A stretch of 64,000 nucleotides of DNA. It comes from Deltaproteobacteria bacterium (GTDB lineage Bacteria; Desulfobacterota; Desulfobulbia; Desulfobulbales; SURF-16). A model generated the notes under the pieces. That model did not search any database. It saw only the letters and a program-made list of their open reading frames with translations, and was not told the DNA's origin. Both the position numbers and the translations under genes were made by a program. Every line of letters begins with the position of its first letter. Within the stretch, counting starts at the first letter, position 1. Below are positions 1-17,807 of the stretch, one piece after another. The stretch lies in NCBI GenBank assembly GCA_029939635.1, contig JAOZSN010000001.1, forward strand, positions 15,833-79,832, written 5' to 3'.

Positions 1-539
1 GCAGAAGGATCAAGCTCCCGTAGGGTTCTTCTCATCATAAAAAAATACCCGGCAAACCCTGTTATAGCGACAAAGAGAACAAGGCCCAGAAAGGACTTTT
101 TCAAGCCACCCAGTACGCCACCTTCCCATAAAGGGGCAAACTGCAACTCCACAGTTCCCCAGAGCTTTTGCCCCTTCAGGATGGGAACCTGGACATGGGT
201 CAGAGAAGAACGACCATCCCCAGAACTTTGCCAACGGGACAGATGGTTGCCACTCACTGCCAATAACGTCCCAGCAGAACTGCGCAGGGCGGCAGAAAGG
301 ATAGCATTATCCCTCTCAACCAATGACTTCAAGGTCATCCTGATGGAAGCAAGATCATCATTAGTGGCTGCAGCGGAAAATTGCAGGGCAAGAGACTCAC
401 AGAGATCCTTACGGGCCTCAAAAGCCACCTCATCTCGATTAGGGGCAATACCAATAAAATCTGCCACCAGGAGAAGACTCACGGTTAAAGCCATAATACC
501 GAGACTGATACGTGCTGCCGGAGTTTTAAAAAACTTCAT
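1..539 (-). CDS. Membrane-anchored sensor/signalling protein, N-terminal part (partial, runs off left edge)
   Basis: Absent from the ORF track because no stop falls in the window. The ATG at 539-537 overlaps the TGA (538-536) of the giant gene, giving an ATGA junction. My translation starts MKFFKTPAARISLGIMALTVSLLLVADF. It shows an N-terminal TM, a ~150-aa extracytoplasmic segment, a second TM (LGLVLFVAITGFAGYFFMM) and then RRTLRELDPS. Open for 179 codons to position 3. Confidence 0.6.
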   Translation of the reverse strand, partial: MKFFKTPAARISLGIMALTVSLLLVADFIGIAPNRDEVAFEARKDLCESLALQFSAAATNDDLASIRMTLKSLVERDNAILSAALRSSAGTLLAVSGNHLSRWQSSGDGRSSLTHVQVPILKGQKLWGTVELQFAPLWEGGVLGGLKKSFLGLVLFVAITGFAGYFFMMRRTLRELDPS

Positions 540-3500
540 TTTTCTACCCTATTTTTATCAAACATCTGGTCCACATCATTATTATTCGCTGGTGGTGTGT
601 CATCCTTCTTTTTCTCTTTCTTCTTGGGGAGAATCAAAACAGAAATTGGATCAAAGCCCTTCCATAAAGGAACAGAGGCAAGAAAACTGGAAAAGAGAGA
701 ACCAGCCCTGAGCAGATAGCCCGCAGCCCCAGCGGCCAGGGAAGCAGAGACCCCTTTTGTTGCCAAGGCTGTAAATACATGGCCACGAGAACTCTCAGCA
801 AAATCTGAATCAAGCTCTTGCCGCAAAATTTCAATCTGGCCAGCTACCATGACCTGATCAGCATCAGACAAGGGTCTGAGTAACTCATCATCAAGACCAA
901 ATTGCTCATAGGCAACCTGGGTCGTCTCTTCACTAGCACTACTCAAATAACTACTCCCCACCCCTTGTGATGAAGAGGATTTTTTTGAGTCCTGGTCATA
1001 ATTAAGGGGCAAATACTCATCAAAGGTAAACGGCTGGCTGACAGATTCTTCCGGCTCCATATCATCATTGTTTTCTTGCCAGACCGAATCTCCAAATTGG
1101 GATTCCTGGCTGCGATCATTATCACTTACTTCCAGACCAACAATGTCGTCAGAATTTCCGTCCTCACTCACCTCAGGGGCATCAGGAAGATCAGCGCCAG
1201 GAGAGGTATCGTCACCACCATCTTCCGGCAGAGCCTCATTGAGGTCAGTGACGGCAATGGTAAAATCCATACTGGCCGTACTGCCATCAGCAGAGGTGGC
1301 CAGAGCAATGACAGTATGGCTCTGAGCATTTTCATAATCAAGGGCACCATTGACGGTAATAACCCCGCTGACACTATCAATAACAAACAACCCACCAGCA
1401 TCATCAAGCAAGGAGTAGGTGATCGTACTATTGCTACTATCACCATCAACGGCATGGGCCACCACGCCTACCACTGTACCAAGGGCACTATTTTCAGAAA
1501 CAGTGTTTGGACTGAGGTTACTATCACTAATTGCCGCAACATCAAATTCATCCTCATCAAGCAGATTAATGGTAAAACTCCGCGAACTTGTGCTGCTATC
1601 TGTGGAGGTGGCCTGGACAGTGATGCTGTGACTCGTAGCAGCTTCGCTGTCCAGCAGATGACCAGCTGCCACGGTGACTATGCCACTGTTTGCATCAATA
1701 ACAAAGCGGCCTCCGGCATCATTGCTCAAGCTATAGGTGATGCTATCTCCGCCATCACCATCAGTGGCATGGGCAGTGAGGCCAACACTGCTGCCAGCAC
1801 CACTATTTTCAAACACCGTTTCGCTGACCACAGCGTTGGTATCGACAATAGTAGTGACCGCAAACTCATTGACATCTGCAACTGAAACCGTAAAGGCTCT
1901 ACTATCGGTATTACCATCCTCATCCATGCCATGCAAAATGGCGTCATAGACATTATCGCCATTGCCATCAACGGCAGCCTCAAAATTTCTGGCAATCATA
2001 CTGACCACACCCGTACTTGCATCAACGCTGAACAGGCCGGCATCAGCACCGCTCAAGGTGTAGGTAACATTGCCTATGGGAGTATCACCACTCAAACTCG
2101 GCACGCTACTAGTAAAGATAACATTTTCGGCAATAATACTATCGGCAAGGGCATCGATAGTGAAATTCGCTATTTCAACAGCATCGGTCACCTCCACCGT
2201 AAAAGCCTCGCTATCACTGTTGCTATCGGCATCAGTGGCGATCAAGGTCACCTCATAGACATTATCACCATTGATATCTGCGGCTGCCTCATAATTTCGG
2301 CCAACCATACTGACCACACCCGTACCAGCATCAACAGTGAACAGACCGGCATCTACACCACCAAGGGTATAGATGATGTTGCCAATGGGAGCATCACCAC
2401 TTAAACTCGGCACGCTACTAGTAAAGCTGACATTTTCGGCAATAATACTATCGGCAAGGGCATCAATAGTGAAATTCGCTATTTCAACAGCATCGGTCAC
2501 CTCCACCGTAAAAGCCTCGCTATCACTGTTGCTATCGGCATCAGTGGCGATCAAGGTCACCTCATAGACATTATCACCATTGCTATCAGCAGCAGCCTCG
2601 TAATCTCTGCCAACCATACTGACCACACCGCTATTGGCATCAACGCTGAACTGAGCGGCATCACTACCAGCCAGGCTATAGCTGACTGTACCAATGGGCG
2701 CAGCACCACTTAAGTTCGGGGTAACACTGGTAAATCCGACATTCTCGCTGATAACAGTATTAGCAATGGCGTCGATATTAAAGGTGGCAGTTTCAACCAC
2801 ATCGCTGACGGTGACGGTAAAATCTTCACTATCCGTATTGCCATCAGCATCAGTGGCGACCAGAGTCACCTCATAGACATTATCACCATTATTATCTACA
2901 GCAGCCTCAAAGTTTCTGGCAACCATACTAACCACACCGGTACTGGTATTGACGCTGAACAGGCCCGCATCTGTGCCACCAAGACTATAGCTGATATTGC
3001 CAATGGGAGCAGCACCACTTAAGTTCGGGGTAACACTGGTAAATCCGACATTCTCATTGATAACGGTATTGCCAATGGCATCAATGCTGAAGTTAGCATC
3101 TTCAACCACATCGCTGACGGTGACGGTAAAGGCGGCTTGAGCAGTATTAGCATCAGCATCAGTGGCAACTAAGGTCACCTCATAGACATTATCACCATTG
3201 CTATCAGCAGCAGACTCATAATCTCTGCCAACCATACTCACCACACCGGTACTGGCATCAACGCTGAATAGGCCGGCATCACTACCGCTCAAGGTGTAGG
3301 TGATATTGCCAATAGGTGTGTCGCCATTCAGGTTTGGGGTAACACTGCTAAATACGACATTCTCATTGATAACGGTATTGCCAATGGTATCAATACCGAA
3401 GTTAACGACTTCAACCACGTCGCTGACGGTGGCGGTAAAGGCGGCATTAGCCGAATTAGCATCCTCGTCAATGGCGACCAGGGTCACCTCATAGACATTA

Positions 3501-6500
3501 TCGCCATTGCTATCAGCGGCAGTCTCATAATCCCTGGCAACCATACTAACCACACCAGTACTGCTATTAACGGTGAACAGGCCGGCATCTACACCTGCCA
3601 GGCTATAGGTCACGGTGCCAATGGGAGCAGCACCACTTAAATTCGGAGTGACACTGGTAAAAACGCTATTCTCAACTACCGTTGTATTGGCAATGGTATC
3701 AATGTTGAAGGTGGCGGCTTCAATCACATCACTCACAGTGACAGTAAAGGCTTCACTGGCGCTATTACCATCATCATCAGTGGCAACCAAGGTCACCTCA
3801 TAGACATTATCACCATTATTATCTACAGCAGCCTCATAATCCCTGGCAACCATACTGACCACACCAGTACTGGCATCAACGCTGAACAGGCCGACATCAG
3901 CACCTGACAGGCTATAGGTGACCGTACCAATGGGAGCAGCACCATTTAAGTTTGGTGTGACACTGCTAAAGTCCGAATTTTCATTGACCGTTGTATTGGC
4001 AATGGCATCAATGCCGAAGATGGCAGCTTCAACCACATCGCTGACAGTAACCGTGAATGATTCACTGGCAATATTCGCATCGGTATCAGTGGCAACCAGA
4101 GTCACCTCATAAACATTATCACCATTACTATCTGCAGCAGCCTCATAATCCCTGCTAACCATGCTGACCACACCTGTTCCAGCATCAACGCTGAACAGAG
4201 CAGCATCGCTACCAGCCAGACTATAGGTGACAGCACCAATGGGTGCAGCACCACTTAAAACCGGCGTAACACTGGTGAAAACACTATTCTCGTTGACCGT
4301 TATATCAGCAATGGTATTGATCGTAAAAAGCGCTGATTCAGCGACATTAGACACCGTAACGCTAAAGGCTTCACTGGCGCTATTACCATCATCATCAGTG
4401 GCAACCAAGGTCACCTCATAGACATTATCACCATTATTATCTACAGCAGCCTCAAAGTTTCTGGCAACCATACTGACCACACCGGTACTTGTATTGACGC
4501 TGAACAGGCCAGCATCTGTGCCGCCAAGACTATAGCTAACAGTGCCAATGGGAGCAGCACCACTTAAGTTCGGAGCGCCACTGGTAAAGGCAGCGTTTTC
4601 AGCTACCGTTGTATCGGCAATGGCATCAATGGTAAAGCTGGCCGTTTCCACCACATCGGTGACAGTAACGGTAAAGGCTGCACTGGCGCTGTTGCCATCA
4701 TCATCAGTGGCAACCAGGGTGACATCATAGATATTATCACCATTGCTATCAGCAGCAGCCTCGTAATCTCTGCCAACCATACTCACCACGCCACTACCAG
4801 TATCAACGCTGAACAGGCCAGCATCTGTGCCGACCAGGCTATAGATAATGGTGCCAATGGGAGTATCACCGCTCAAATTTGGCGTAACGCCAGTAAAGGC
4901 GCTATTTTCAGCCACTGTTGCATTGGCAATGGTATCAATGCTGAAGTTGACGTTTTCCACTCCATCGCTGATTGTGACGCTAAAGGCTTCACTATCCGTA
5001 TTGCCATCATCATCAGTAGCAACCAAGGTGACATCATAGATATTATCACCATTGCTATCAGCAGCAGCCTCGTAATCTCTGCCAACCATACTCACCACGC
5101 CGGTACTGACATCAACACTGAACAGTCCCGCATCTGTACCGGCCAGACTATAGGTAATGGTGCCAATAGGGGTATCACCACTCAGATTTGGCGTAACACT
5201 GGTAAAGACGCTATTTTCAACCAGCGTTGTATTGGCAATGGCATCAATGCTGAAGGTGGATGCTTCCACCATATCACTGACGGTGACGCTAAAATCTTCA
5301 CTATCCGTATTGCCATCATCATCAGTGGCAACCAGGGTAAGCTCATAGACATTATCGCCATTGCTATCTGCAGCAGCCTCGTAATCTCTGCCAACCATGC
5401 TCACCACACCTGTACCGGCATCAACGCTGAACAGGCCCGCATCCGTGCCGGCCAGACTATAGGTAATGGTGCCAATGGGGGTATCACCACTCAGACTAGG
5501 TGTAACGCCGGTAAAGGCACTATTTTCAACCACGGTTGTATCAGCAATGGCATCGATACTGAAGGTGGCTGTTTCCACCACATCGCTGACAGTGACGGTA
5601 AAATCTTCACTATCCGTATTGCCATCATCATCAGTGGCAACCAGAATCACCTCATAGACATTATCGCCATTGCTATCCACAGCAGCCTCATAATCTCTGC
5701 CAACCATGCTCACCACACCTGTACTGACATCAACGCTAAACAAACCAGCATCCGTGCCCGCCAGGCTATAGGTAATGGTGCCAATAGGGGCATCACCACT
5801 TAGATTTGGCGTTACACTTGTAAAGACACTATTCTCAACCACCGTTGCATTGCTAATGGCATCAATGCTGAAGTTAACATTTTCCACCACATCGGTAACA
5901 GTGACGACAATACTCTGATTTATGGTATGTGTACCGGCAGAAACAGCAACATCTACACTGTACATATTGTCTGTGCCTGCATCGGAGGGCATCTCAAAAT
6001 TTGGGGCTGTGATAAAACTTAGATTGCCGCTGTCGTCGATTTGAAAGAGATGGTCATCAGCGCCTGTTCCGGCGATGGCATAGCTCAAAGAGTCATTATC
6101 TGCATCTGTGGCAATAACCTGATGGACGGTGGTAGTATTCTCTGCGACACTGGCCGTGGCCGAACTGGAAATTACAGGAGGAGCATTATATTCAACACTA
6201 AGTTCTGGGCGAAACTCTTGACCTGCAACCTCTGAACTGGCAAAGGCCCAATAATCAGAACCAAAAAAGGGTGAATCTCCATCCTGATCCAGAAAGGCCC
6301 AGCCTTGGTTAGAGCCAGGGTCAACAGACCATTTCCGCAGAGAGCTTTCCAAACCATTGATGGTGATATAATCATCATCAATGATATCATTAACACCGTC
6401 ACCAACTGCATTGGCATCAGCATCACCTGTATCAAAACGGACGCCATTGACCATGCTATTCCAGGTCGTCGTAGACTCATCCCAGCCCACAAGCATCTCA

Positions 6501-7525
6501 TGCATGGTTATGGTGGTATCAGAACTGGTATTGTTGATCCATAGCTGCAGAGAGGCAGAGCTAATGGTGGAACCTACGGGTATCTGGCCTAGCCCATCAC
6601 CAAAAAGATTGTCAAAGCGGAGTAACCCTTCAAAGAAATCATCCGAAGAAAACATCCCTCCTTGTTCGTAGGTTACTTGTATATTATCGGCAGTGGTGCC
6701 GTTAGTGGTGTTGTTTCTGTCATCACTATCAAGAAATGTATCCTGTGTCCCACTATAGCCATTGGCATCCCCTTGTTGAAAGGTCGCGGTGAGTAAACGG
6801 GCCTGCCAACTCTGCTGCAGGCCGACGGAGACGGCCAACTGGGATTCAATATTGCCGGTCTGATACTCAAGCTGCCAATCGCCCGCCAGGCTCCCATGAC
6901 CGGTAATATCATCGGAGCCAGCCACATCAGCACCGGTGAGCATGGCGATGGAATCAAGCAGCTGCTGACCTTGCTGAGTGGCAGCAATATTACAGCCGTA
7001 GAAAAGGATGTCGGCCTCCTTGTTCAGACTATCGTTCCAATCGGTCAAGGTGGTGGCATTGGCATTAACTGATGCTGAATCAAGCCAACTATTACCAAGT
7101 TGTACCTGACCATCACTGCCATGGGATATAATATGAATACCATCAACATCTTGAAATTGTACTAAAACATCGCTTATCTGGCTTATGCCATCCTCATTGG
7201 CATTGAGAATAATCACCTCAACCTGGGCATCATCACCCAAAGTACGTACGACATCATCGATAAATTGCTGATAATCTGGGGTGCGGCTATCAATAAAGAC
7301 CAGCTCCAGGCGACTTTCTGCACTCTGTTCTGCTGCCGACTCACTACTCCCCAAGGCAGGGTTCAGCTCTACCTCCAGCACCCCACCATCTCCACCCTGT
7401 TCCACAGAGAGGGAAGAAGTGGCCAGCATGGCTACGCCATCAAGATCTGCTGAAAAAAGCAGTCGAGCCTCAAGCTCTTCATAGTATAGGGCATGGAGCT
7501 GCTTTGTGTGATATTTTCTAGCCAC
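536..7525 (-). CDS. Giant cadherin-repeat surface adhesin (DUF4347-type N-terminal domain, 16 cadherin-like modules, C-terminal hydrophobic anchor-like tail)
   Basis: 2329-aa ORF. The N-terminus MARKYHTKQLHALYYEELEARLLFSADLDG has no signal peptide. Residues ~75-225 (LVFIDS...GIHIISHGSDGQVQLG...ILFYGCN) look like the DUF4347 domain of giant adhesins. Sixteen modules carry the D-x-D/N-G-D-N and VxVxD cadherin-like signatures. An acidic linker follows, then the C-terminal hydrophobic stretch and a KKKEKKK tail. Confidence 0.9.
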   Translation of the reverse strand: MARKYHTKQLHALYYEELEARLLFSADLDGVAMLATSSLSVEQGGDGGVLEVELNPALGSSESAAEQSAESRLELVFIDSRTPDYQQFIDDVVRTLGDDAQVEVIILNANEDGISQISDVLVQFQDVDGIHIISHGSDGQVQLGNSWLDSASVNANATTLTDWNDSLNKEADILFYGCNIAATQQGQQLLDSIAMLTGADVAGSDDITGHGSLAGDWQLEYQTGNIESQLAVSVGLQQSWQARLLTATFQQGDANGYSGTQDTFLDSDDRNNTTNGTTADNIQVTYEQGGMFSSDDFFEGLLRFDNLFGDGLGQIPVGSTISSASLQLWINNTSSDTTITMHEMLVGWDESTTTWNSMVNGVRFDTGDADANAVGDGVNDIIDDDYITINGLESSLRKWSVDPGSNQGWAFLDQDGDSPFFGSDYWAFASSEVAGQEFRPELSVEYNAPPVISSSATASVAENTTTVHQVIATDADNDSLSYAIAGTGADDHLFQIDDSGNLSFITAPNFEMPSDAGTDNMYSVDVAVSAGTHTINQSIVVTVTDVVENVNFSIDAISNATVVENSVFTSVTPNLSGDAPIGTITYSLAGTDAGLFSVDVSTGVVSMVGRDYEAAVDSNGDNVYEVILVATDDDGNTDSEDFTVTVSDVVETATFSIDAIADTTVVENSAFTGVTPSLSGDTPIGTITYSLAGTDAGLFSVDAGTGVVSMVGRDYEAAADSNGDNVYELTLVATDDDGNTDSEDFSVTVSDMVEASTFSIDAIANTTLVENSVFTSVTPNLSGDTPIGTITYSLAGTDAGLFSVDVSTGVVSMVGRDYEAAADSNGDNIYDVTLVATDDDGNTDSEAFSVTISDGVENVNFSIDTIANATVAENSAFTGVTPNLSGDTPIGTIIYSLVGTDAGLFSVDTGSGVVSMVGRDYEAAADSNGDNIYDVTLVATDDDGNSASAAFTVTVTDVVETASFTIDAIADTTVAENAAFTSGAPNLSGAAPIGTVSYSLGGTDAGLFSVNTSTGVVSMVARNFEAAVDNNGDNVYEVTLVATDDDGNSASEAFSVTVSNVAESALFTINTIADITVNENSVFTSVTPVLSGAAPIGAVTYSLAGSDAALFSVDAGTGVVSMVSRDYEAAADSNGDNVYEVTLVATDTDANIASESFTVTVSDVVEAAIFGIDAIANTTVNENSDFSSVTPNLNGAAPIGTVTYSLSGADVGLFSVDASTGVVSMVARDYEAAVDNNGDNVYEVTLVATDDDGNSASEAFTVTVSDVIEAATFNIDTIANTTVVENSVFTSVTPNLSGAAPIGTVTYSLAGVDAGLFTVNSSTGVVSMVARDYETAADSNGDNVYEVTLVAIDEDANSANAAFTATVSDVVEVVNFGIDTIGNTVINENVVFSSVTPNLNGDTPIGNITYTLSGSDAGLFSVDASTGVVSMVGRDYESAADSNGDNVYEVTLVATDADANTAQAAFTVTVSDVVEDANFSIDAIGNTVINENVGFTSVTPNLSGAAPIGNISYSLGGTDAGLFSVNTSTGVVSMVARNFEAAVDNNGDNVYEVTLVATDADGNTDSEDFTVTVSDVVETATFNIDAIANTVISENVGFTSVTPNLSGAAPIGTVSYSLAGSDAAQFSVDANSGVVSMVGRDYEAAADSNGDNVYEVTLIATDADSNSDSEAFTVEVTDAVEIANFTIDALADSIIAENVSFTSSVPSLSGDAPIGNIIYTLGGVDAGLFTVDAGTGVVSMVGRNYEAAADINGDNVYEVTLIATDADSNSDSEAFTVEVTDAVEIANFTIDALADSIIAENVIFTSSVPSLSGDTPIGNVTYTLSGADAGLFSVDASTGVVSMIARNFEAAVDGNGDNVYDAILHGMDEDGNTDSRAFTVSVADVNEFAVTTIVDTNAVVSETVFENSGAGSSVGLTAHATDGDGGDSITYSLSNDAGGRFVIDANSGIVTVAAGHLLDSEAATSHSITVQATSTDSSTSSRSFTINLLDEDEFDVAAISDSNLSPNTVSENSALGTVVGVVAHAVDGDSSNSTITYSLLDDAGGLFVIDSVSGVITVNGALDYENAQSHTVIALATSADGSTASMDFTIAVTDLNEALPEDGGDDTSPGADLPDAPEVSEDGNSDDIVGLEVSDNDRSQESQFGDSVWQENNDDMEPEESVSQPFTFDEYLPLNYDQDSKKSSSSQGVGSSYLSSASEETTQVAYEQFGLDDELLRPLSDADQVMVAGQIEILRQELDSDFAESSRGHVFTALATKGVSASLAAGAAGYLLRAGSLFSSFLASVPLWKGFDPISVLILPKKKEKKKDDTPPANNNDVDQMFDKNRVEK
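1856..5872 (-). repeat. Coding tandem array: 13 copies of a 309-bp (103-aa) cadherin-like unit
   Basis: Each unit starts F(S/T/N/G)ID(A/T)I... and ends ...VTV(S/T)DVVE. The first unit begins at residue 552 (nt 5872) and 13 x 309 bp ends at 1856. The periodic 60-64-aa antisense shadow ORFs in the track (2070, 2373, 2694 ... 5466) reflect the same period. Confidence 0.9.
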
Positions 7526-7528: not shown

Positions 7529-8452
7529 TTAGTTCTCCAGGCTACTCAAATAGGTATCTGCAAAATTGACATCATCCTGGCTCTTACTAAAAACTGAGCC
7601 ATCCTGCTCTTTGTCTACTGCACCAGTCGCATCATCCAAGGGAAAACGGACTGTACATTTCAGCCCACCTGGAATGTGATAATCTGGGTTGGGCAGGGCC
7701 AGACGCACTCTGAAAGTTCCACTGGCTGAATCGATCACCCGCTCAACAATATCAACCGTGGCAATATACTCATTCTCCTGCTGTAATTCTGACTGAACTG
7801 CAACCTCCATCCCCTTTTCAATACGACCAAACATGGTGGCAGGCAGAACAACCTCTACCTTGAGAGGGTCAATACAGGCAATACGCAGCAATGGTTCCTC
7901 ATCCACAAATTCACCTTTGGAGACAAAGCGTTCCATCACCACCCCAGAGATGGGGCTGCTGATTCGACGCTGATTGAGCATGGCATTGGCCCGTTGCAGA
8001 TCAAGTTTGGCCAAGGTGCGATTCTCCTTGGCCTTTTGCAGACGATAGCGGGCAATGGCTACCTCTGTTTCAGCTTCATCTTTTTTCTGAGTGGAGATGG
8101 CCTTGCTGATAAACAGGTCATCAAGTCGATCATAGGCCCGCTCGGCAAAGGCCAGTTTTTCCTGCTGCAGCTTGATCTCCCCCTCAATCTTGGTCTGGGC
8201 CCCAGCCCTGGCCACCGTTGCCCTTTCAACCGAGGAATCGAGCAGGACCAACACATCTCCAGCCTTAACCTCATCACTCTTTTCAACCTTAATAGAGCGA
8301 ATCACCCCACCCATGGGGGTGCCGACATTAACCATCTCACTGGGTTCAATAAGACCGTCAAACAGTGGAGATTCAGCCTGCACCGTGGCACTCAGCCCCA
8401 GGGCACAGACAAGGATCATACAAAAAACTATTTTTTTGCCATTATTCATCAT
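7529..8452 (-). CDS. HlyD/membrane-fusion-protein family periplasmic adaptor
   Basis: N-terminal signal/anchor (MMNNGKKIVFCMILVCALGLSATVQA). Lipoyl-like motif (GGVIRSIKVEKSDEVKAGDVLVLLD), coiled-coil hairpin, and the return half of the lipoyl motif (ISSPISGVVMERFVSKGEFV). Its stop lies 3 nt before the start of the giant gene. Confidence 0.85.
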   Translation of the reverse strand: MMNNGKKIVFCMILVCALGLSATVQAESPLFDGLIEPSEMVNVGTPMGGVIRSIKVEKSDEVKAGDVLVLLDSSVERATVARAGAQTKIEGEIKLQQEKLAFAERAYDRLDDLFISKAISTQKKDEAETEVAIARYRLQKAKENRTLAKLDLQRANAMLNQRRISSPISGVVMERFVSKGEFVDEEPLLRIACIDPLKVEVVLPATMFGRIEKGMEVAVQSELQQENEYIATVDIVERVIDSASGTFRVRLALPNPDYHIPGGLKCTVRFPLDDATGAVDKEQDGSVFSKSQDDVNFADTYLSSLEN

Positions 8453-10541: not shown

Positions 10542-12678
10542 TAAATTGCCTCAAGAAAAGTTGTCGAAGAGAGCGATACCACTGCTGGCCAAGGGGAATT
10601 TTAGTATGATCAAAGCGGACATAGACCCGGCCACCAATTTTCATATCCTGTAACTCAGGGGGTAAAGCAAGTTCAAGCTGGAAGACCTTAGTCAAAGTAG
10701 TAAGGCCTTGGGGATCAGTCGGATCAACCGGAATGACACCACCCCCCTTGACCCCAAGGGTGGCAACAGGCAGACTATTGGCTGCTGCAGGCACCACTCT
10801 GGCAATGTTGGTTGTCATGACATGATTAAGACGTTCAACCGACCTGATCTGCACAGCCTCGGTCTGCTCCTGTACCAAGGAAATATCCTTATGACTCACA
10901 ACCAAGCGAACCATGGATGGTACATCCCCCACAACATAGCCCAGCAGAGCACCTTGGTTGACAAAACGACCTGGCAGACTTTGATCCTCTGGCAAGATGA
11001 ATATACCGTTGGCCTGGCTCCTGATAATGAGCTTAGCCAGGCGCTCCTGGTGTTGGTGCAAATCAGCCTTAAGAGTGGTAATCTCATCCAGCAGAATAGT
11101 GCGACGTACTATGGCCCGCAGAGGTTCAGCGGTATATTGGGCCTCTAGCTCCTGTAGGGTAGCGCTCAAAACTTCAGTCTCTGTAGTCAGAAAAGGATCA
11201 TCACACACCAACAACACATCACCCTTTTCCACCCTGCTACCAGCCGAAGTCATAACTTTGGCGACAACACCATCCACACCAACACGAACCTGCGACTGCT
11301 CTGGAACCCAAACCACCCCTTCTGCTCTGGTGTGAAAAGGAGCTGGCACCACCCCAAACAGCATGGTCAGTAATCCACTACTCAGCAAAGCAACCACACA
11401 CACCCTGCTATTCTTTTGTTGGCGCCCTGAACTATTGAAAAAGCGAGACATCGCCAATCCAGCAGGTTTCAATACCTGACTAAATGCTCCCCAGGCAGCC
11501 AGCAGAACACCGACAAAGAAAAACTTAGCGCCGACAAACAACAATAAGCCAGTAATAACCAGTAGCCGATAGATAAAGGCACAAATACCATACACCAACA
11601 GCCAAAACTCTTCGCCAGATGCAGTCACCGGCGATCTGGCCTCACTGATACCAAAAAGATAGCGCTGGACAAGATAGCCAAGATAGCGGTTGGAACGCTG
11701 AGCCAAATTAGGAATTTCTAGGCCATCGGCCAGAATAAAATAGCCGTCAAAACGTAAGAGAGGGTTACCGTTAAAGAGCAAGGTAGAAACCCCACCAATA
11801 AGCATGACATTATAGGCAATGGCACTGACCAAACCCGACTCCACGCTGAGCCAAACCCCTAAGGCCAAAGCAGCTATACTCACTTCAACAACCATGCCCA
11901 TGGCAGCCACAGCCATGCGGTGTCTCTTCTCTGAAAAAGCAGCAGAGGCAGAGGCCTCTACATAGGGAATGGGTGTAAATGCCAGGAGCATAATACCCAT
12001 TTCATGAACCTCTCCTCCCCACACCTTCACAGCAAAGGCGTGGCCGAACTCATGGAAAAGTTTAACCACAGGATAGACCAACCAGAGGATAAGGAGATTT
12101 GGGGGGGCAAGAACTCGATCAGCGATATTTTCACTGAGTTCAGGCCAATGAGTTAACGCCCCAACCAGTCCACTGCCCACCACGGCAAAAAGAAATAGGG
12201 CCATGGGCCAGCTAAAGAGAGGCTTGACAAGAAAGAGCCATTTTTGCAAAAAACGATCAGGGTCAACCAGGGGAAAACGCATGGCAAACGGGTTGGCAAT
12301 GGAATGTCGCCTATCATTTCCAGCTGCTTTTTTCTGGCGGCTGAACAGATCCAAGGTATCGGCACTCACATCGCAACGCAGCAAATCTGTACTGTGGAGC
12401 TGCCCCAGCAAGGTAATAACCTCATCCTGACTAGGGGCATCATCACCTAAAAAGTCCAGACCCGCCTGCCATATTTCAGCCAAACTCTTTGTGCCATCCA
12501 TCAAGCCGATGAGATAATAGGCCGCCATATTAAAACGCTGATGACGCCCAGAGGCAGTATCTCGCAACACATACCAGGGCTGCTGCCGATAATAATGGCG
12601 AGAGACCTGAACATGGCGACGCAGGCGCGGCTCAAGGGCTGCGATACGGTACCAGTATGTGCTATAGAGTGAGGACAT
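10534..12678 (-). CDS. Fusion protein: polytopic M50 (site-2 protease) metalloprotease domain plus C-terminal HlyD-like adaptor domain
   Basis: HEFGHA (HExxH) inside a hydrophobic segment, plus the downstream NGNPLLRFDGY motif (M50 NxxPxxxLDG-type). Several TM segments. The C-terminal half has a lipoyl-like motif (GVVAKVMTSAGSRVEKGDVLLVCDD), a coiled coil and a beta-barrel-like region. It overlaps the SecA-like start by 8 nt (ATGTTTGA). Confidence 0.8.
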   Translation of the reverse strand: MSSLYSTYWYRIAALEPRLRRHVQVSRHYYRQQPWYVLRDTASGRHQRFNMAAYYLIGLMDGTKSLAEIWQAGLDFLGDDAPSQDEVITLLGQLHSTDLLRCDVSADTLDLFSRQKKAAGNDRRHSIANPFAMRFPLVDPDRFLQKWLFLVKPLFSWPMALFLFAVVGSGLVGALTHWPELSENIADRVLAPPNLLILWLVYPVVKLFHEFGHAFAVKVWGGEVHEMGIMLLAFTPIPYVEASASAAFSEKRHRMAVAAMGMVVEVSIAALALGVWLSVESGLVSAIAYNVMLIGGVSTLLFNGNPLLRFDGYFILADGLEIPNLAQRSNRYLGYLVQRYLFGISEARSPVTASGEEFWLLVYGICAFIYRLLVITGLLLFVGAKFFFVGVLLAAWGAFSQVLKPAGLAMSRFFNSSGRQQKNSRVCVVALLSSGLLTMLFGVVPAPFHTRAEGVVWVPEQSQVRVGVDGVVAKVMTSAGSRVEKGDVLLVCDDPFLTTETEVLSATLQELEAQYTAEPLRAIVRRTILLDEITTLKADLHQHQERLAKLIIRSQANGIFILPEDQSLPGRFVNQGALLGYVVGDVPSMVRLVVSHKDISLVQEQTEAVQIRSVERLNHVMTTNIARVVPAAANSLPVATLGVKGGGVIPVDPTDPQGLTTLTKVFQLELALPPELQDMKIGGRVYVRFDHTKIPLGQQWYRSLRQLFLRQFNV

Positions 12679-12687
12679 AATAAAGTA

Positions 12688-12739: not shown

Positions 12740-14500
12740 TTAAGGCATCCACGTCCACATTTGCAAACGCAGCCAGTCAGTGAGGCGGTGGGTCCAGATC
12801 CAAATCAGCTTTCGCTGGTCAATTTTGATTTTTGCTACCCCTTCCATGCCAGGACGCAGCAGATCTGATTTTGAGTCAAGCAGACCCTCCACTCGGAAAT
12901 AATTACGCCCATCTTCACTAACCGATACCGGGGTTATCTTGGTAATGGAAAAGGATATACTCTTTGTTACCAGCCCAGAAAGAATCAGGTCACCCTGCTG
13001 ACCGGTCTTAATAAAACCGATATCTCGCTCGTCAACCTTGACAATGAGGCGATAGGCATCTAAGGGGGCAACCTCAAATAATACCTCGCCCCGTTGCACT
13101 GGCGCACCTAGGCTCTGACTGAGATCACCACTGATTACCAGACCAGAAAAAGGGGCAACAAGACGGGTGCGCAACAGCTGCTTTTCCACCAATTTCAACT
13201 GTGCATCTGCCTGTAATATTCTGGCTTTAAGAATAGTGGATTCGGACTGATTACGCCCTGCCAAGGCATTGCGGTACTCTTTGCGAATTTGTTGGCGCTG
13301 GGAAAACCATTTTTGACGCAGCAAAAGAAGCTCTTTATTTTCCAGCTGAGCCAAGAGGTCTCCGTCTTGAACAATATCACCAGCCCGCACCGCAGCACTG
13401 GCCACATAGCCATCTTGCGGAGCCACCACCACTCGCTGCACACTAGGTTCAAGGGAAGAGTTTGATGCTACCCGAAAATCACCTTGGACAAGGAAAAGAA
13501 CAGCACACAATAGCAGGCTCGACAGGGTGGCAAATTTCAATTTGAAACACCGGGGCCCCACAAGCTTTAGGAGAAAGTTGGCAATAGGCTCAACGAGCTT
13601 CGAGGGCAACCAGATATCATCACGCCTTCTTGACTCAAGGGCAGGGCCAACCAAGGCACCAATCTGCTCACACTGGCTTGCAGTTTCAACATCAAAGGGC
13701 TTATCTGCCGCTCTTTCCAATAACAAGGAGCCAACAAGAGTACCATTATAGACAAGGGGAACCGTACAGACCGAGCCGACCTCAAACTCGTTACATAACC
13801 TGCTATGGGCCACAACAACCTGCAACGCACCATCCAGGGGTGGATAGAGCACTGTTTCCTGCTGATCCAAGGATTCATACATGGCATCTTTGATACCACT
13901 CATCATGCTGGTGCGACGATCAAAATTGGCGGTATTGGAGACAGCATAAATTTGTATGCCTGGCCCCTTACCAAAGCCGATACTCACCCTTTCACAATCA
14001 AGTCGCGTGGCTAGGCTGGTCACAACAGCAGTAGCTGCGTCTTGAAAATTTTCATGTTCCAGACTGGCAGCAACAAGCTCAACCAGGGTAAGTAACTGTT
14101 CCTTGGCCACTGATGCCTGCTGCTTAATCATGGCTTCAAGCCAGAAAGTACCAGTCTGCAGCTGTGCCATCACTTCTTGCTGGCGAGCAGGAGGGCGACT
14201 AGACATGGCCACGGCCACAACTCCTAAGAGTTTCCCTCCACTATATAAAGGACATGCTACAACGTCACACGGCTGCGCTGTTTCCTGCAGGGTCAAATCA
14301 AAATCCCTGACCAGGCACTGCTCTTCTTCCAGTGCTGTTTGGGCGGCGGCAACTACAGCTGGTTGGGATGAATTCTCGGGCCAGGATGTCAGCTGTGTGT
14401 AGGACCCTTTACCAGGGATACCTGTCAGGGCAACACCATAGACACAGCCCGAAACCTGCTTACACTGGAGAAGCAACCATTTCTGGATAAGTTGTTTCAT
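12740..14500 (-). CDS. Fusion protein: N-terminal GAF-like domain(s), one TM, C-terminal HlyD-like adaptor domain
   Basis: The N-terminal ~300 aa carry GAF-like patterns (PLYSGGKLLGVVAVAMSS; CTVPLVYNGTLVGSLLLERA). TM segment FATLSSLLLCAVLFLVQG. Then a lipoyl-like motif (VVAPQDGYVASAAVRAGDIVQDGDLLAQLE), a coiled coil, and VAPFSGLVISGDLSQSLGAPVQRGEVLFEV. Confidence 0.75.
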   Translation of the reverse strand: MKQLIQKWLLLQCKQVSGCVYGVALTGIPGKGSYTQLTSWPENSSQPAVVAAAQTALEEEQCLVRDFDLTLQETAQPCDVVACPLYSGGKLLGVVAVAMSSRPPARQQEVMAQLQTGTFWLEAMIKQQASVAKEQLLTLVELVAASLEHENFQDAATAVVTSLATRLDCERVSIGFGKGPGIQIYAVSNTANFDRRTSMMSGIKDAMYESLDQQETVLYPPLDGALQVVVAHSRLCNEFEVGSVCTVPLVYNGTLVGSLLLERAADKPFDVETASQCEQIGALVGPALESRRRDDIWLPSKLVEPIANFLLKLVGPRCFKLKFATLSSLLLCAVLFLVQGDFRVASNSSLEPSVQRVVVAPQDGYVASAAVRAGDIVQDGDLLAQLENKELLLLRQKWFSQRQQIRKEYRNALAGRNQSESTILKARILQADAQLKLVEKQLLRTRLVAPFSGLVISGDLSQSLGAPVQRGEVLFEVAPLDAYRLIVKVDERDIGFIKTGQQGDLILSGLVTKSISFSITKITPVSVSEDGRNYFRVEGLLDSKSDLLRPGMEGVAKIKIDQRKLIWIWTHRLTDWLRLQMWTWMP

Positions 14501-14593
14501 ACTAACACGACCATTTGCACTTTCCTTGGGGTCCTATCATACGGCAACCATTCAATTAAACTCTTAACGTCTTCCTTCATTGCATTTAGTATT

Positions 14594-14610: not shown

Positions 14611-14764
14611 ACACCCGAATCACCACTAAATAACTTAAAATTCAGTGCTCAACAGGATTACACTGCAGCCAAACCCTATCTCAGATTAGGTTGGTAGTAT
14701 TTCACTAATTTTCCTTTCAAAAAATCTTCCCCTCCAGCAGACAGAACCCAATATCACCAAACCA

Positions 14765-14809
14765 TGTCACAATATGACATTTTTTTACACAATGCGACAT
14801 TTTTTGTCG
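14765..14809. promoter_or_regulatory. Two 5-N5-5 palindromes (TGTCA-N5-TGACA at 14765-14779; CGACA-N5-TGTCG at 14795-14809), candidate enhancer-binding-protein sites
   Basis: Read directly. They lie between the two divergent candidate sigma-54 promoters. A GACATTTTTT half-site recurs at 14776, 14796 and 14869. Confidence 0.3.
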
Positions 14810-14896
14810 ATTTTACTGAGCAGAGCGCTTATCGTATATCCCCTGAAACCTACTCGCCACAGAAAACCGACATTTTTTTGCTTTCCTTACAATAAT

Positions 14897-14911
14897 TGGC
14901 GCATTTTTTGC
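14897..14911 (+). promoter_or_regulatory. Sigma-54 (-24/-12) promoter candidate upstream of the TolC-family gene
   Basis: TGGCGCATTTTTTGC: GG at 14898-14899 and GC at 14910-14911 with exactly 10 nt between them. Close to the TGGCAC-N5-TTGC consensus. About 160 nt upstream of the ATG at 15070, with a sigma-54 activator encoded in the same unit. Confidence 0.55.
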
Positions 14912-15069
14912 TGTTATCAACAAATATGTATCAAAGATGTCGTCAAGCAGTTGTTTTGAGTAAGCACGTTACAAATTTATTTTTTTCATATTAAAATTAA
15001 ATAGTTAGGCTGCAAACTCTAAAGTTGACAGCAAAAAAAAATACTCCCTGAAGTTTTCACGGTTAACCA

Positions 15070-16407
15070 ATGAATATTGCACCATATATATTTTGCTTTT
15101 TCATAGTGATTTTGCCGCCTAAAGCGTATAGCGCTGAGCAGTCGTCCCCAGCCCACATGAACCTGGCTGACTGCATTGATCTGGCCTTGGCTCATAGCCC
15201 TGATCTCGGCATGGCCCAAGCAACATTTGCTCAGAATAAGGCCTTGCTTGACAGTGCCAAAAAGAATTTATTGCCCTCATTCTCAGCCCATTACTCCTAT
15301 AAATACCAACCAAACTCCATCTATTCCCCTACAGATGAGTACGGCTATGGCCTCACAGCAGAACAACCTATCTATCAAGGTAAAGCCATTGTCACCAGCA
15401 TCAAACAGGCGGAAATATCTCTCAACTCTGCCCAGAAAGGAACTGACCGTATCATCAACGAGCTCATTTTCCAGGTCTACACCAACTATTTCAAAGTACT
15501 CAGGGCAGTCAAGGTGGCCACGGAAGCTCAAAATTCCGTCAACCGACTTAAAAGCCATAGGAGTGACGCCAAGGCCTTTTTTGATGCTGGGATTATCCCT
15601 CGCAATGATTTCCTACAAAGTGATGTGGAACTTGCCCAGGGAGAGCAAGACTTTGTTGATGCCCAGATAGAAGCCTTTATTGCTCGGGCAGAGTTGAACA
15701 TTTTATTGGGCCGCGACACAGACATGGCTCTGCATCTTGAAGATAATTATGCCAAAGAGCAACGAGAAAACAACTGGGATGACATCCTCCACTCAGCCCT
15801 GACCAATCGTCCTGAAATTATGCAGGCCAAACTAGGGGCTGAAATGGCCAAGAAGGAAGTGACCATTAAAAAAGCGCCTTTTCTGCCTAAAATCTCCCTA
15901 TCAGCCTCCTATGACAAACGAGGAGACAGAGCCGACGGGGCGCGATCGGATGAACTAGGTTGGCCAGCAGAAGAGAAAACCGTCAGCGCGGTGGCCACAT
16001 GGAAATTATGGACATGGCAAAAAAATAAAAACGAGATTACAGCGGCAAAAAAAGATGTCCGCCGCGCAAAAAAGGCAATCGCCCAGACCATTGATCGTGT
16101 CAGCCTGGAAACCAGAATTGCCTTTCAACGCCTGCAGCAGACAGAAAAGAGAATCAAGGTATCCGAACGAGCCATTACCCACGCAGAAGAAAATTATCGT
16201 ATCACCCAGGCCCGCTACCAATCACAAATTGCCACGTCAACCCAGGTGCTGGATGCCCAGGCGCTGCTCACCCAGGCAAAAACAAACTACTATGACTCTT
16301 TTTATGGCCATAAAGTTGCTCTGGCCGCAGTGGAGAGAGCCTCAGGCCGTTTGGGACAAAAATATTCTCACACAACCAATGAATCAGCAGAACAAGGACA
16401 ACCATGA
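15070..16407 (+). CDS. TolC-family outer-membrane efflux/secretion duct protein
   Basis: Signal peptide (MNIAPYIFCFFIVILPPKAYSA). Typical OEP start LADCIDLALAHSPDL. Two repeated OEP halves with coiled-coil regions. 445 aa. Confidence 0.9.
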   Translation: MNIAPYIFCFFIVILPPKAYSAEQSSPAHMNLADCIDLALAHSPDLGMAQATFAQNKALLDSAKKNLLPSFSAHYSYKYQPNSIYSPTDEYGYGLTAEQPIYQGKAIVTSIKQAEISLNSAQKGTDRIINELIFQVYTNYFKVLRAVKVATEAQNSVNRLKSHRSDAKAFFDAGIIPRNDFLQSDVELAQGEQDFVDAQIEAFIARAELNILLGRDTDMALHLEDNYAKEQRENNWDDILHSALTNRPEIMQAKLGAEMAKKEVTIKKAPFLPKISLSASYDKRGDRADGARSDELGWPAEEKTVSAVATWKLWTWQKNKNEITAAKKDVRRAKKAIAQTIDRVSLETRIAFQRLQQTEKRIKVSERAITHAEENYRITQARYQSQIATSTQVLDAQALLTQAKTNYYDSFYGHKVALAAVERASGRLGQKYSHTTNESAEQGQP

Positions 16408-17807
16408 TAGCCCCATCCACAGACCCCATGCATGCCCTTATTATTGATGATGACACACTCATTTTAGATGTCATTGAGGAATTTTTAGGACAACTAGGTA
16501 TCATCGCAGCCCGTGCTCTGGACGTACATAGTGCTAAAAGCAGCCTTGACCATCTTAATTTTGATCTGTGCATCACTGACCTGGGCCTGCCAGATGGCTC
16601 AGGCTTTGAGGTCGTCCACTATATTGCTGCAAATTTCCCCCATCTGCCAGTGGCAGTTGTTACCGCCGACACCAGTACAGAGTCTGCGGTGGCTGCTATG
16701 CAGGCCGGGGCCTTTGACTATCTCACCAAACCCTTGGAAAGAGATCGTCTCGCCTTACTGGTGACCAATGCCATCAACCTTAGTGCCAACACTGTCCCAG
16801 TAGACCAGGAAACACTCTTAGTTGGCCAATCTCCTGCCATCAAGGCCATTAATGCCATGGCCCAACGCTTGGCCCAAACCAATGCCCCTGTCCTAATTAC
16901 TGGTGAATCAGGTTCAGGAAAAGAATTAGTTGCCCGCACCATCCACCAATGCAGTCCCCGCCGAGATGCCCCCTTTATTGCCGTCAACTGCGGAGCTATT
17001 CCTGAAAACCTGATGGAAAGTGAATTTTTCGGCCACGAAAAAGGCTCTTTTACTGGTGCTGATCGGCGTAAACCAGGTCTCTTTGTTGCTGCTGAGGGTG
17101 GAACAATTTTCCTTGATGAAATCGCTGATCTCCCTCTGGCAATGCAGGTCAAAATGTTACGAATCCTCCAGGAGCGTGCCATCCGTCCCGTGGGCAGCAC
17201 CAATGAGTCACCCATTGATGTCCGTGTGCTGTCCGCCTCCCATAAAAACCTTAATACCGAGGTTTCCCTGGGACGTTTCAGAGAGGATCTCTACTACCGG
17301 GTTAATGTCATTTCCATTGCCATGCCCAGCCTTAAAGAACACCTGGAAGATATTCCCCAGCTCACCAAGACGTTTCTTCAAAAAATTGCTAGCAGGGACG
17401 GTAAGGCTTTTATTGATATCAGCGAAACAGCCCTAGCCCAGCTCAGCAAGGAGTCCTGGCCAGGAAATGTCCGCGAATTAAATAACCGCCTTGAACGGGC
17501 AGCAGCCCTCTACCAAGGGCATCGTATTGAAATAAACGATGTTATTACCCCCAGCACCCCAACCCATGACAGCCAACCGCAGCTTAGTTCAATAGAGGGA
17601 GTAACCACTGCCCTGCCAGTAGCACTCCCTGCCCTGCAACCCTACGGCAAAGACTCCCTTGACACCGTCTTGGCCGAAGTAGAAAAATTTTACGTCCTCC
17701 AGGCCATGGAGACATGCAAGTATAACAAGAATAAGGCCTCAAAATTGTTAGGAATTAACAACAGATCATTGCGCTATCGGCTGCAAAAATTTGATATTGA
17801 TTATTGA
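16404..17807 (+). CDS. Sigma-54-dependent response regulator (NtrC family: receiver + AAA+ + Fis-type HTH)
   Basis: Receiver domain (LIIDDD...DLGLPDGSG). AAA+ Walker A GESGSGKE. Sigma-54 contact loop ESEFFGHEKGSFTGA. C-terminal HTH NKNKASKLLGINNRSLRYRLQKF. Its ATG overlaps the TolC stop (ATGA). Confidence 0.9.
   Translation: MIAPSTDPMHALIIDDDTLILDVIEEFLGQLGIIAARALDVHSAKSSLDHLNFDLCITDLGLPDGSGFEVVHYIAANFPHLPVAVVTADTSTESAVAAMQAGAFDYLTKPLERDRLALLVTNAINLSANTVPVDQETLLVGQSPAIKAINAMAQRLAQTNAPVLITGESGSGKELVARTIHQCSPRRDAPFIAVNCGAIPENLMESEFFGHEKGSFTGADRRKPGLFVAAEGGTIFLDEIADLPLAMQVKMLRILQERAIRPVGSTNESPIDVRVLSASHKNLNTEVSLGRFREDLYYRVNVISIAMPSLKEHLEDIPQLTKTFLQKIASRDGKAFIDISETALAQLSKESWPGNVRELNNRLERAAALYQGHRIEINDVITPSTPTHDSQPQLSSIEGVTTALPVALPALQPYGKDSLDTVLAEVEKFYVLQAMETCKYNKNKASKLLGINNRSLRYRLQKFDIDY

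Follow-up and report, generated by a model that had tools for sequence, protein, structure and literature searches.

The subject of this report is a gene cluster in the first 17.8 kb of a 64-kb stretch of DNA from a Deltaproteobacteria bacterium (contig JAOZSN010000001.1; the whole stretch is referred to as the window). The cluster consists of four genes for a GAF-HlyD protein, an M50-HlyD protein, a truncated SecA paralogue and a HlyD adaptor, collectively called the cassette, followed by the gene for a giant protein of the kind designated LEPR-XLL after a motif near its N-terminus. On balance, it appears probable that the locus encodes a dedicated apparatus which spans the envelope and both exports and processes the LEPR-XLL giant beside it, in a leader-dependent manner resembling type I secretion. 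The locus is a member of the secondary SecA / M50 / HlyD cluster family that was described in silico in 2015. What is new beyond that description is a candidate class of cargo (the LEPR-XLL giants), a candidate targeting motif, and a PqqD-like domain in the M50-HlyD protein.

Association of the cassette with giant proteins

Two surveys were made. In the forward survey, an alignment of M50-HlyD was scanned against one genome per species, and 80 loci with 40-50% identity were returned; labels such as L001, L074 and L167 denote the related loci that were fetched. Relatives of M50-HlyD are present in at least 546 species genomes, and the 80 fetched loci come from alpha-, beta-, gamma- and delta-proteobacteria, Nitrospirota, Myxococcota, Rokubacteria and Methylomirabilia. 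The order of the genes was read by matching the window proteins to six-frame open reading frames (ORFs) of the fetched loci, and the order GAF-HlyD, M50-HlyD, SecA-like, HlyD is kept in nearly all 80. A giant ORF on the same strand adjoins the cassette in 30 of the 35 loci with sufficient flanks (at least 7 kb of upstream and at least 5 kb of downstream sequence), lying upstream in 23 and downstream in 7.

In the reverse survey, metagenomes were scanned with an alignment of the leader and DUF4347 of the giants, and 80 loci were again returned. The cassette adjoins 19 of the 27 DUF4347 giants that have at least 7.5 kb of upstream sequence. In two of the remaining eight, another DUF4347 giant lies upstream, in the place of the cassette. 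The link between the cassette and a signal-less giant repeat protein, for which the earlier note had set a gene-neighbourhood survey as the test beforehand, is therefore strong both ways, as the giants adjoin the cassette in either direction of search. The cargo link of the cassette with the LEPR-XLL giants is well supported, and these giants are probably its cargo. No HlyB-type ABC gene is present beside any cassette in the loci with annotation.

The giants upstream of the cassette are homologous to one another and share RTX-like repeats, LamG domains and a metzincin motif at the C-terminus; most of them exceed the fetched flanks. A search with the C-terminal 832 aa of an upstream giant returned only fragments of up to 1,455 aa, and the N-termini were taken from annotated plasmids. 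Complete upstream giants of 8,847 aa and 12,737 aa are encoded by Methylosinus sp. C49 pMSC49a (start ...IIFDTLEPRVLLNAD, containing TLEPRVLLNAD) and Pseudosulfitobacter pDSM107133_a (start ...LHLETFEPRVLLSAD, containing TFEPRVLLSAD), respectively. In both plasmids a small DUF3467 gene comes next, and then the cassette.

Two types of loci are seen. Type A consists of the LEPR-XLL giant, DUF3467, the cassette and sometimes TolC. Type B, which includes the window, consists of the cassette, then an LEPR-XLL/DUF4347 giant and often a PAS-GGDEF-EAL gene, with DUF3467 absent. The DUF3467 gene, for a protein of about 105-130 aa, is located between the upstream giant gene and the cassette (e.g., L162:17741-18061 and L163:17753-18094), and in about 30 of the 80 genome loci (L002-L081) it immediately precedes GAF-HlyD. 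Neither the window nor any DUF4347-type locus contains it. A comparison of the protein with PDB sequences gave no meaningful match. In loci with an upstream giant, DUF3467 looks like a fifth conserved component.

The leader motif and the giant protein

Every flanking giant ORF or fragment with a readable N-terminus starts with the LEPR-XLL motif, a conserved feature of the giant that the earlier note had overlooked. Searched for in the first 120 residues, the strict motif is found in only 12 of the 1,582 ORFs of at least 200 aa, and all twelve are giants or giant fragments flanking the cassette. Among the 82 intact DUF4347 N-termini, at least 75 carry the motif (60 strict and 15 loose), and most of the others are visible variants. 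The consensus of the leader is a basic stretch, three hydrophobic residues, and E-E-L-E-P-R-(L/I)-L-(F/L/Y)-S-A-D. In the window, the motif occurs only once, and it carries A in place of P (LEARLLFSA), a variant also seen in L102, L105 and L107. The features of the window giant, all on the minus strand, are as follows.

7445-7480, minus strand: LEPR-XLL-type motif EELEARLLFSAD, aa 16-27, preceded by basic residues (NF012209)
6797-7303, minus strand: DUF4347 (PF14252), C80-like cysteine protease domain, aa 75-243 (Pfam, E 1.5e-52)
7121-7123, minus strand: putative catalytic His135 (alignment)
6992-6994, minus strand: putative catalytic Cys178, the sole Cys of the 2,329 residues (alignment)
635-754, minus strand: C-terminal hydrophobic module, aa 2258-2297, ...YLLRAGSLFSSFLASVPLWKGFDPISVL (conserved among DUF4347 giants)
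605-625, minus strand: Lys-rich tail, aa 2301-2307 (following the C-terminal module)

Apart from DUF4347, the giant has at least 14 cadherin-type repeats, with 14 cadherin stretches recognised by profile searches. The protein is very acidic (D 10.7%, K 0.7%, R 1.4%). Motif and hydropathy scans of it found neither a GGxGxD motif nor a strongly hydrophobic segment at the N-terminus, in agreement with the earlier claims that it lacks RTX nonapeptides and a Sec/Tat signal, and no recognisable C-terminal type I signal was seen. An acidic composition, a single Cys and cadherin or RTX repeats are typical of proteins secreted in one step.

H135 and C178 are invariant in the DUF4347 alignment, and they align with His186/Cys240 of Pseudomonas aeruginosa Tce1/PA0256 (PDB 9qpe_G), which have been equated with the dyad of the TcdB protease domain (PMC13323088). 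The assignment of the fold is based on the Pfam match, the alignment with 9qpe_G and this published equation; a single-sequence AlphaFold2 model of the DUF4347 region reached a mean predicted local distance difference test (pLDDT) score of only 36.7. Since its His/Cys pair aligns to the dyad of the TcdB/MARTX type, the giant probably carries a self-processing protease directly after its leader, and it may process itself by this putative domain.

At the other end of the protein, the module W.LR.G.L..S..A..P.W[RK]..DP[LI]PVL is present in seven of the ten complete metagenome DUF4347 giants (L095, L115, L118, L120, L139, L144 and L151), often with charged residues following it. No NCBIfam model matches the module, which may be a membrane anchor or a substrate of the M50 protease.

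Layout of the locus

The features of the locus are listed below, with their strands and the basis of each assignment in parentheses.

1-539, minus strand: membrane sensor gene, 5' part (ATGA overlap with the giant gene, homologues, hydropathy)
536-7525, minus strand: gene for the giant protein, putative cargo, 2,329 aa (ORF and Pfam DUF4347)
7529-8452, minus strand: HlyD adaptor gene, 307 aa (HlyD/RND membrane-fusion profiles)
8529-10541, minus strand: truncated SecA paralogue gene, 670 aa (SecA_DEAD profile)
10534-12678, minus strand: M50-HlyD gene, three-part membrane protein (motifs, profiles, AlphaFold2 model)
12740-14500, minus strand: GAF-HlyD gene (GAF and HlyD_3/HlyD_D23 profiles)
14766-14912, plus strand: candidate regulatory region upstream of the TolC gene, with palindromes and a sigma-54-like element (pattern only)
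15070-16407, plus strand: TolC-family outer-membrane factor gene, signal peptide present (OEP profile, hydropathy)
16404-17807, plus strand: gene for an NtrC-type sigma-54-dependent response regulator (receiver, AAA+ and HTH_8)

The genes are tightly packed, with intergenic gaps of 3-77 nt within the cassette. M50-HlyD and the SecA-like gene are joined by an 8-nt overlap (ATGTTTGA, 10534/10541, from coordinates and translations), the stop codon TAA of HlyD is separated by 3 nt from the GTG start of the giant gene, and ATGA overlaps join the giant gene to the sensor-like gene (536-539) and the TolC gene to the NtrC-type gene (16404-16407). The TolC gene is transcribed divergently from the cassette.

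All eight ORFs were found at the coordinates given in the earlier note, whose overlaps and domain calls also proved correct against the ORF list and in profile searches; the note had asked for these searches beforehand, and they confirmed each call. Its parts list of a tripartite exporter (an outer-membrane factor and three adaptor modules) held as well, as did its view of the SecA paralogue as the sole NTPase in the operon, and profile searches of 1-17.8 kb bore out its statement that neither a HlyB-type ABC exporter nor an RND pump is encoded there. No SecY-like gene (including SecY2-like ones) and no canonical secA was found within the window. Rfam gave no matches in the window, hence no cyclic di-GMP (c-di-GMP) riboswitch, and scans of the window for sigma-70 promoters and terminators were uninformative.

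The M50-HlyD protein and the other adaptors

In the M50-HlyD protein of the window, aa 209-213 (nt 12040-12054) read HEFGH and aa 305-312 (nt 11743-11766) read NPLLRFDG, i.e., an HExxH motif in a membrane helix and a downstream NxxPxxxxDG zinc-ligand motif, as in site-2 proteases of family M50. The residues H209, E210, H213, N305, P306, D311 and G312 are invariant in 54 M50-HlyD sequences. The best match of the protease part is NF041824, the NCBIfam model of the daptide intramembrane metalloprotease / leader-peptidase (E 1e-43), although the score of 149.8 bits is below the cut-off of 300. The match to HlyD (HlyD_3) is weak in the window protein and Pfam Peptidase_M50 does not match it, but Peptidase_M50, PqqD and HlyD_3 each match 11 of 13 members of the family. 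The PqqD-like domain, also overlooked in the earlier note, is N-terminal (approximately aa 20-100). Domains of the PqqD type bind leader peptides in the pathways of ribosomally synthesised and post-translationally modified peptides (RiPPs). In the locus, there are no genes for a RiPP precursor or for RiPP-modifying enzymes. The RefSeq name of the protein, 'PqqD family peptide modification chaperone', is misleading.

In an AlphaFold2 model of M50-HlyD, built from the 54 sequences (mean pLDDT 82.8), the N-terminal domain has three strands and three helices, the membrane core consists of roughly eight helices with HExxH within helix 192-219, and the C-terminal adaptor part has an alpha-hairpin at aa 495-548. 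The best Foldseek matches of the adaptor part are MacA, MexA and AcrA. As modelled, therefore, the C-terminal part is a true adaptor fold with an alpha-hairpin. The PqqD-like domain is cytoplasmic and the adaptor domain periplasmic.

In GAF-HlyD, a single membrane helix (aa 321-339) separates an N-terminal GAF region from the adaptor domain at the C-terminus. From this arrangement the GAF region would be cytoplasmic and the adaptor domain periplasmic. Its public name, 'efflux RND transporter periplasmic adaptor subunit', is misleading. The separate HlyD adaptor (307 aa) scores 131 bits against TIGR01730, above the cut-off, and starts with a signal peptide or anchor.

The SecA paralogue

The SecA-like protein (670 aa) matches the Pfam families SecA_DEAD (E 1.6e-99), PPXD and P-loop_SecA. 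It aligns to residues 14-607 of the 841 residues of Bacillus subtilis SecA, and thus comprises the first nucleotide-binding domain, the preprotein cross-linking domain, the second nucleotide-binding domain and the start of the scaffold helix. Walker A (GEGKT), DEAD, GRGTD and GRQGDPG are all intact. In SecA, the wing domain, the two-helix finger and the C-terminal tail come beyond the first part of the scaffold helix. Because the alignment ends in this long helix (residue 607), the paralogue is without a helical wing domain, two-helix finger and C-terminal tail, in line with the earlier statement that the C-terminal parts engaging SecY are missing. Its scores are below every SecA and SecA2 equivalog cut-off of NCBIfam; for the SecA2 models they are 460 bits for TIGR03714 (cut-off 930), 405 for TIGR04221 (725) and 400 for NF012136 (1100). 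In public databases the paralogue is misleadingly called 'prepilin peptidase', 'translocase' or 'DEAD/DEAH box helicase' (L162 WP_244635385.1, L163 and others).

The overlap between the stop of M50-HlyD and the start of the SecA-like gene is 8 nt in 53 of 83 loci, across phyla, and 4 nt in eight more. The conserved 8-nt overlap fits translational coupling and suggests a fixed partnership of the two proteins.

In some cassettes the terminal adaptor is longer (approximately 440-530 aa) and has a C-terminal SPOR peptidoglycan-binding domain (L074:12156-13553; L125:3228-4820). The longer variants of cassettes without SecA were considered as a substitute motor and rejected, because they carry the SPOR domain and no ATPase.

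A SecA-less sister system on plasmids

A more distant sister system is found on plasmids of Escherichia coli, Citrobacter and Azospirillum. Its genes encode an LEPR-like/DUF4347 giant, TolC, two adaptors and an M50-HlyD protein with 25-28% identity; the giant of E. coli has 4,459 aa. Among 5,426 complete E. coli genomes, 24 carry the system, mostly on IncF plasmids. Two of its loci are the following.

44829-64580 of NZ_CP081687.1, an E. coli plasmid: sister locus L168
Azospirillum argentinense plasmid p2: sister locus L169

Since cassettes without SecA exist as well as this system, the conserved core appears to be the giant, M50-HlyD, the adaptors and TolC.

The outer-membrane factor and control elements

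TolC genes adjoin the cassette in about nine loci, and in Methylosinus pMSC49a the gene string that contains the cassette ends with TolC. The divergent pair of OEP and NtrC genes seen in the window is kept in the closest relative, L167 (64% identity).

A -24/-12 element of sigma-54 type, TGGCGCATTTTTTGCT, is located at 14897-14912 (plus strand), 158 nt upstream of the TolC start, and the palindromes TGTCACAATATGACA and CGACATTTTTTGTCG lie further upstream. The sigma-54 promoter claimed for the TolC gene in the earlier note thus stands as to the fitting position of the element, but not as to the significance of the pattern, with six matches across the window against 3.7 expected; it is the position and the adjacent activator gene that speak for the element.

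The product of 1-539 has two hydrophobic segments by hydropathy. Its full-length homologues are a protein of 897 aa with PAS, GGDEF and EAL in L074 and one of 999 aa with PAS_4, GGDEF and EAL in L167; in addition, 11 of the 80 DUF4347 loci of the metagenome survey have a homologue. By homology, the gene probably encodes a PAS-GGDEF-EAL protein of c-di-GMP signalling.

Relation to described systems

In a comparative genomic study, Kamneva, Poudel and Ward (PLoS One 2015, PMC4452313) described secondary SecA_DEAD proteins in a conserved locus, the partners being Peptidase_M50-like/HlyD, GAF/HlyD and HlyD/Biotin_lipoyl proteins, with OEP genes sometimes adjacent. The example of Methylobacterium extorquens AM1 is the operon META1p2402-2399, in the order GAF, M50, SecA_DEAD, HlyD. 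These authors proposed that SecA_DEAD was co-opted as an ATPase replacing an ABC transporter, considered that the M50 protein may be the membrane component, and reported horizontal transfer across Proteobacteria, Nitrospirae and the PVC phyla (PMC4452313). The window locus has the same features: a shorter SecA_DEAD protein, an M50-HlyD protein with transmembrane helices, GAF-HlyD and HlyD, in the same order. The belief expressed in the earlier note that no such system had been described must therefore be given up, as the same four proteins, their order and the idea of SecA as the ATPase were all published in 2015. That paper names no substrate and mentions none of LEPR-XLL, DUF4347, DUF3467, cadherin, adhesins or the PqqD-like domain. 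The window locus differs from the one described in that the giant, with DUF4347, lies downstream of the cassette, with a GGDEF-EAL gene next, and in the divergent sigma-54 TolC/NtrC pair. A literature search found no experimental or follow-up work on the secondary SecA_DEAD locus, and a 2021 review of tripartite and type I systems is silent on it in the part available.

Close parallels are also the classical type I systems of giant adhesins, such as LapA with LapBCE, LapD/LapG and c-di-GMP, SiiE, and the RTX adhesins. An adaptor and a TolC-family duct are shared with these, as are giant, acidic, Cys-poor repeat proteins without a Sec signal, a c-di-GMP gene nearby and the expectation of proteolytic processing. 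In contrast, the window locus has no HlyB-type ABC exporter and has three adaptor modules rather than one; the conserved signal-like motif (LEPR-XLL) is N-terminal instead of C-terminal; and the window giant has no RTX nonapeptides, whereas the upstream giants of other loci have RTX repeats. Moreover, the proteases are an M50 intramembrane enzyme and a C80-like domain in cis, with no LapG.

The logic of one machine for leader recognition, cleavage and export is shared with peptidase-containing ABC transporters (the C39 bacteriocin exporters), and a PqqD-like domain fused to an HExxH membrane protease is shared with RiPP leader peptidases (the daptide M50 enzymes, NF041824). The substrate here is thousands of residues long instead of a peptide, however, and the ATPase is derived from SecA and not of the ABC type; unlike the daptide protease, the window protein scores below the cut-off of NF041824, and its locus has no RiPP enzymes.

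A second, shorter SecA for a few unusual substrates is also known as the accessory SecA2 of Gram-positives and mycobacteria. The window paralogue differs in being below all SecA2 cut-offs, in its diderm host, in stopping right after the first scaffold helix, and in its gene neighbours, namely adaptors, a protease and TolC instead of the SecY2/Asp proteins. The adaptor fold of M50-HlyD is nearest to those of MacA (MacAB-TolC), MexA and AcrA, and the two different adaptors of TriABC-OpmH are a precedent for more than one adaptor species per pump; in contrast to both MacAB-TolC and TriABC-OpmH, the inner-membrane partner here is no ABC, RND or MFS transporter. Finally, DUF4347, the domain of the type VI secretion effector Tce1/PA0256, has the His/Cys pair that has been aligned with the dyad of the TcdB protease domain (PMC13323088). 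A location inside a very large secreted protein is shared with the autoprocessing cysteine protease domains (peptidase C80) of MARTX and TcdA/TcdB, but in the window DUF4347 directly follows the N-terminal leader of a cadherin-repeat protein.

Proposed course of export

From the parts, folds and motifs and the gene association described above, the following course may be proposed for recognition, motor action, passage of the inner membrane, cleavage and regulation. The giant is made without a Sec/Tat signal and presents an N-terminal basic stretch with the conserved EELE(P/A)RLLFSAD motif. The cytoplasmic PqqD-like domain of M50-HlyD would recognise this leader. The truncated SecA, translationally coupled to M50-HlyD, would then feed the unfolded, acidic, nearly Cys-free chain N-terminus first, by means of ATP and its preprotein clamp, and such feeding could begin during translation. 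The membrane parts of M50-HlyD and GAF-HlyD, with the three periplasmic adaptor modules, may assemble into a conduit that docks the TolC-family duct. The intact M50 site, to which the earlier note ascribed processing of cargo or anchor, may cut off the leader or cleave the C-terminal hydrophobic module, and the C80-like Cys protease domain of the giant may process the protein itself. Control could be exerted by the GAF domain, which the earlier note took for a ligand gate, by the adjacent PAS-GGDEF-EAL gene through c-di-GMP, and by the sigma-54/NtrC pair upstream of TolC. With an N-terminal signal, export could start before a chain of 8,000-12,000 residues is finished, which is a plausible gain over a C-terminal type I signal.

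A broader claim is put forward more tentatively, at somewhat less than even chances. The cassette might be a distinct and widespread secretion pathway that serves the largest proteins of bacteria (among those seen, up to 12,737 aa), in which targeting by the LEPR-XLL leader, recognition by PqqD-M50, a SecA-derived motor (possibly co-translational) and a three-adaptor/TolC conduit would bypass SecYEG, with DUF3467 as an accessory in the giant-upstream loci or the C80-like domain in cis in the window-type loci. A pathway of this kind would deserve to be ranked as a secretion-system type by itself.

Evidence against the proposal and alternative explanations

Several observations weigh against export by the cassette as proposed. 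The support for it is computational, from sequence, gene association and a structure model. None of the cassette components is an obvious protein-conducting channel of the inner membrane. The SecA gene is missing from five of the 19 DUF4347-linked cassettes and from five of 81 genome loci, in which M50-HlyD is followed directly by HlyD; the isolate Marinobacter suaedae is among the carriers of such SecA-less cassettes. In the plasmid sister system, likewise, no gene for SecA, an ABC protein or any ATPase is present among the genes from the giant to M50-HlyD. The motor role that the earlier note gave to SecA is therefore not supported as an obligatory one, and the paralogue is either supplied in trans or a frequent addition, or not the essential motor. 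As to the leader, NF012209 ('LEPR-8K'), a model of an approximately 24-residue motif, gives the window giant only 13.8 bits (E 0.034), below the cut-off of 17, and gives the homologous giants of L001 and L074 30.1 and 31.6 bits. As to regulation, the adjacency of TolC and NtrC is not conserved outside L167, so that the divergent pair does not hold as a general feature, and the element TGGCGCATTTTTTGCT matches the sigma-54 pattern with one mismatch.

The main rival is a two-step route coupled to SecYEG, in which the SecA paralogue or, in its absence, the housekeeping SecA delivers the giant to SecYEG, the adaptors and TolC take over in the periplasm in the manner of MacAB-TolC with some of its substrates, and M50 serves as a signal or anchor peptidase. 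The SecA-less cassettes and sister system add weight to this route, because they suggest that a generic SecA could serve, and the paralogue retains the preprotein cross-linking domain. The lack of a gene for a channel protein in the locus counts in the same direction, as does the precedent of mycobacterial SecA2, which works through SecYEG. The route loses weight, however, because the paralogue is without the two-helix finger, wing domain and C-terminal tail of canonical SecA and because the leader has no hydrophobic core of the type recognised by SecYEG. Moreover, RTX/cadherin giants of 8,000-12,000 aa typically take routes that involve no periplasmic intermediate, and the window has no SecY2-like gene. 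This route is considered rather unlikely. It is less probable still that the giant is secreted by a conventional ABC type I system with its genes elsewhere, and that the cassette, rather than translocating the giant, anchors, retains or releases it by M50 cleavage under GAF/c-di-GMP control, as LapD/LapG do with LapA. The recurrence of the PAS-GGDEF-EAL gene beside DUF4347 giants, the conserved C-terminal hydrophobic module as a possible M50 substrate, the RTX repeats of the upstream giants and the cassettes without SecA would agree with such an arrangement. Yet the window giant has neither an RTX motif nor a recognisable C-terminal type I signal, no annotated cassette has a HlyB-type ABC gene beside it, and three adaptor modules with TolC are the parts of a conduit rather than of a protease switch.

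Two further explanations would remove the giant from the substrates of an exporter, and both are given very little credence. If the cassette exported and matured a small RiPP or bacteriocin-like peptide, with the giant as a mere neighbour, the match of the protease part to the daptide leader-peptidase family (E 1e-43), the PqqD-like domain typical of RiPP pathways and the RefSeq name of M50-HlyD would all be accounted for. This explanation was rejected on the score below the NF041824 cut-off (149.8 against 300 bits), the gaps of 3-77 nt, which are too small for a precursor gene, the lack of a modifying enzyme in the locus and the strong two-way association with LEPR-XLL giants. It is no more credible that the cassette is an envelope signalling or quality-control module, working by regulated proteolysis of the site-2-protease type and GAF ligand sensing without any transport. 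M50 proteases are classically signalling proteases and GAF is a sensor domain, but no anti-sigma or sigma factor partner is found, and three adaptor folds, a TolC-docking hairpin, TolC co-encoded in several loci and an ATPase with a preprotein clamp are all at odds with such a function.

Other genes in the window

Next to the locus, an ABC-2 type transporter is encoded at 17906-20621 (minus strand) by genes for one ATPase and for two permeases of the ABC2_membrane_6 family; it directly adjoins the NtrC gene and is convergent with it. It was considered as the missing ABC component and rejected, being of the wrong type and having no ABC counterpart in the annotated homologous loci. The genes at 28439-32859 (plus strand), for an MMPL/RND-like transporter, a LolA-like protein and a 418-aa protein without a Pfam match, are likely a lipid-export module unrelated to the SecA-like locus.

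A second sigma-54 two-component pair (a HAMP histidine kinase and an NtrC-type regulator) is encoded at 32877-35740 (minus strand). Adjoining it at 35865-35880 (plus strand) is a sigma-54-like element with one mismatch, TGGCACGGGACATGCA, which lies ahead of an operon of membrane-bound hydrogenase/complex-I-like type at 36664-45478 (plus strand; Proton_antipo_M, NADHdh, Complex1_49kDa, Oxidored_q6). At 50787-51974 (plus strand), Volactin (PF25216) is matched over its full length (E 1e-84). Volactin is an actin-like family described in haloarchaea, and the gene shares the window with a locus whose proteins have Desulfobulbales-like bacteria as their closest named relatives.

Significance

The cassette has stood outside the canon of secretion systems since 2015, and the LEPR-XLL giants are today annotated only as 'LEPR-XLL domain-containing', 'Ig-like' or 'LamG-like'. 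The cargo link between the two makes a testable system of what was a gene-neighbourhood curiosity. Possible tractable hosts are E. coli with the plasmid sister system, as on the IncF plasmid NZ_CP030920.1, and isolates of Methylobacterium, Marinobacterium, Labrenzia and Vibrio, such as M. extorquens AM1, Marinobacterium mangrovicola DSM 27697, Labrenzia alba CECT 7551 and Vibrio sp. UCD-FRSSP16_30. If the proposal is true, it would show how bacterial proteins of 2,000-12,000 residues are exported without an ABC transporter. SecA would then also act away from the Sec translocon, and RiPP-type recognition of leaders would be extended to giant proteins.

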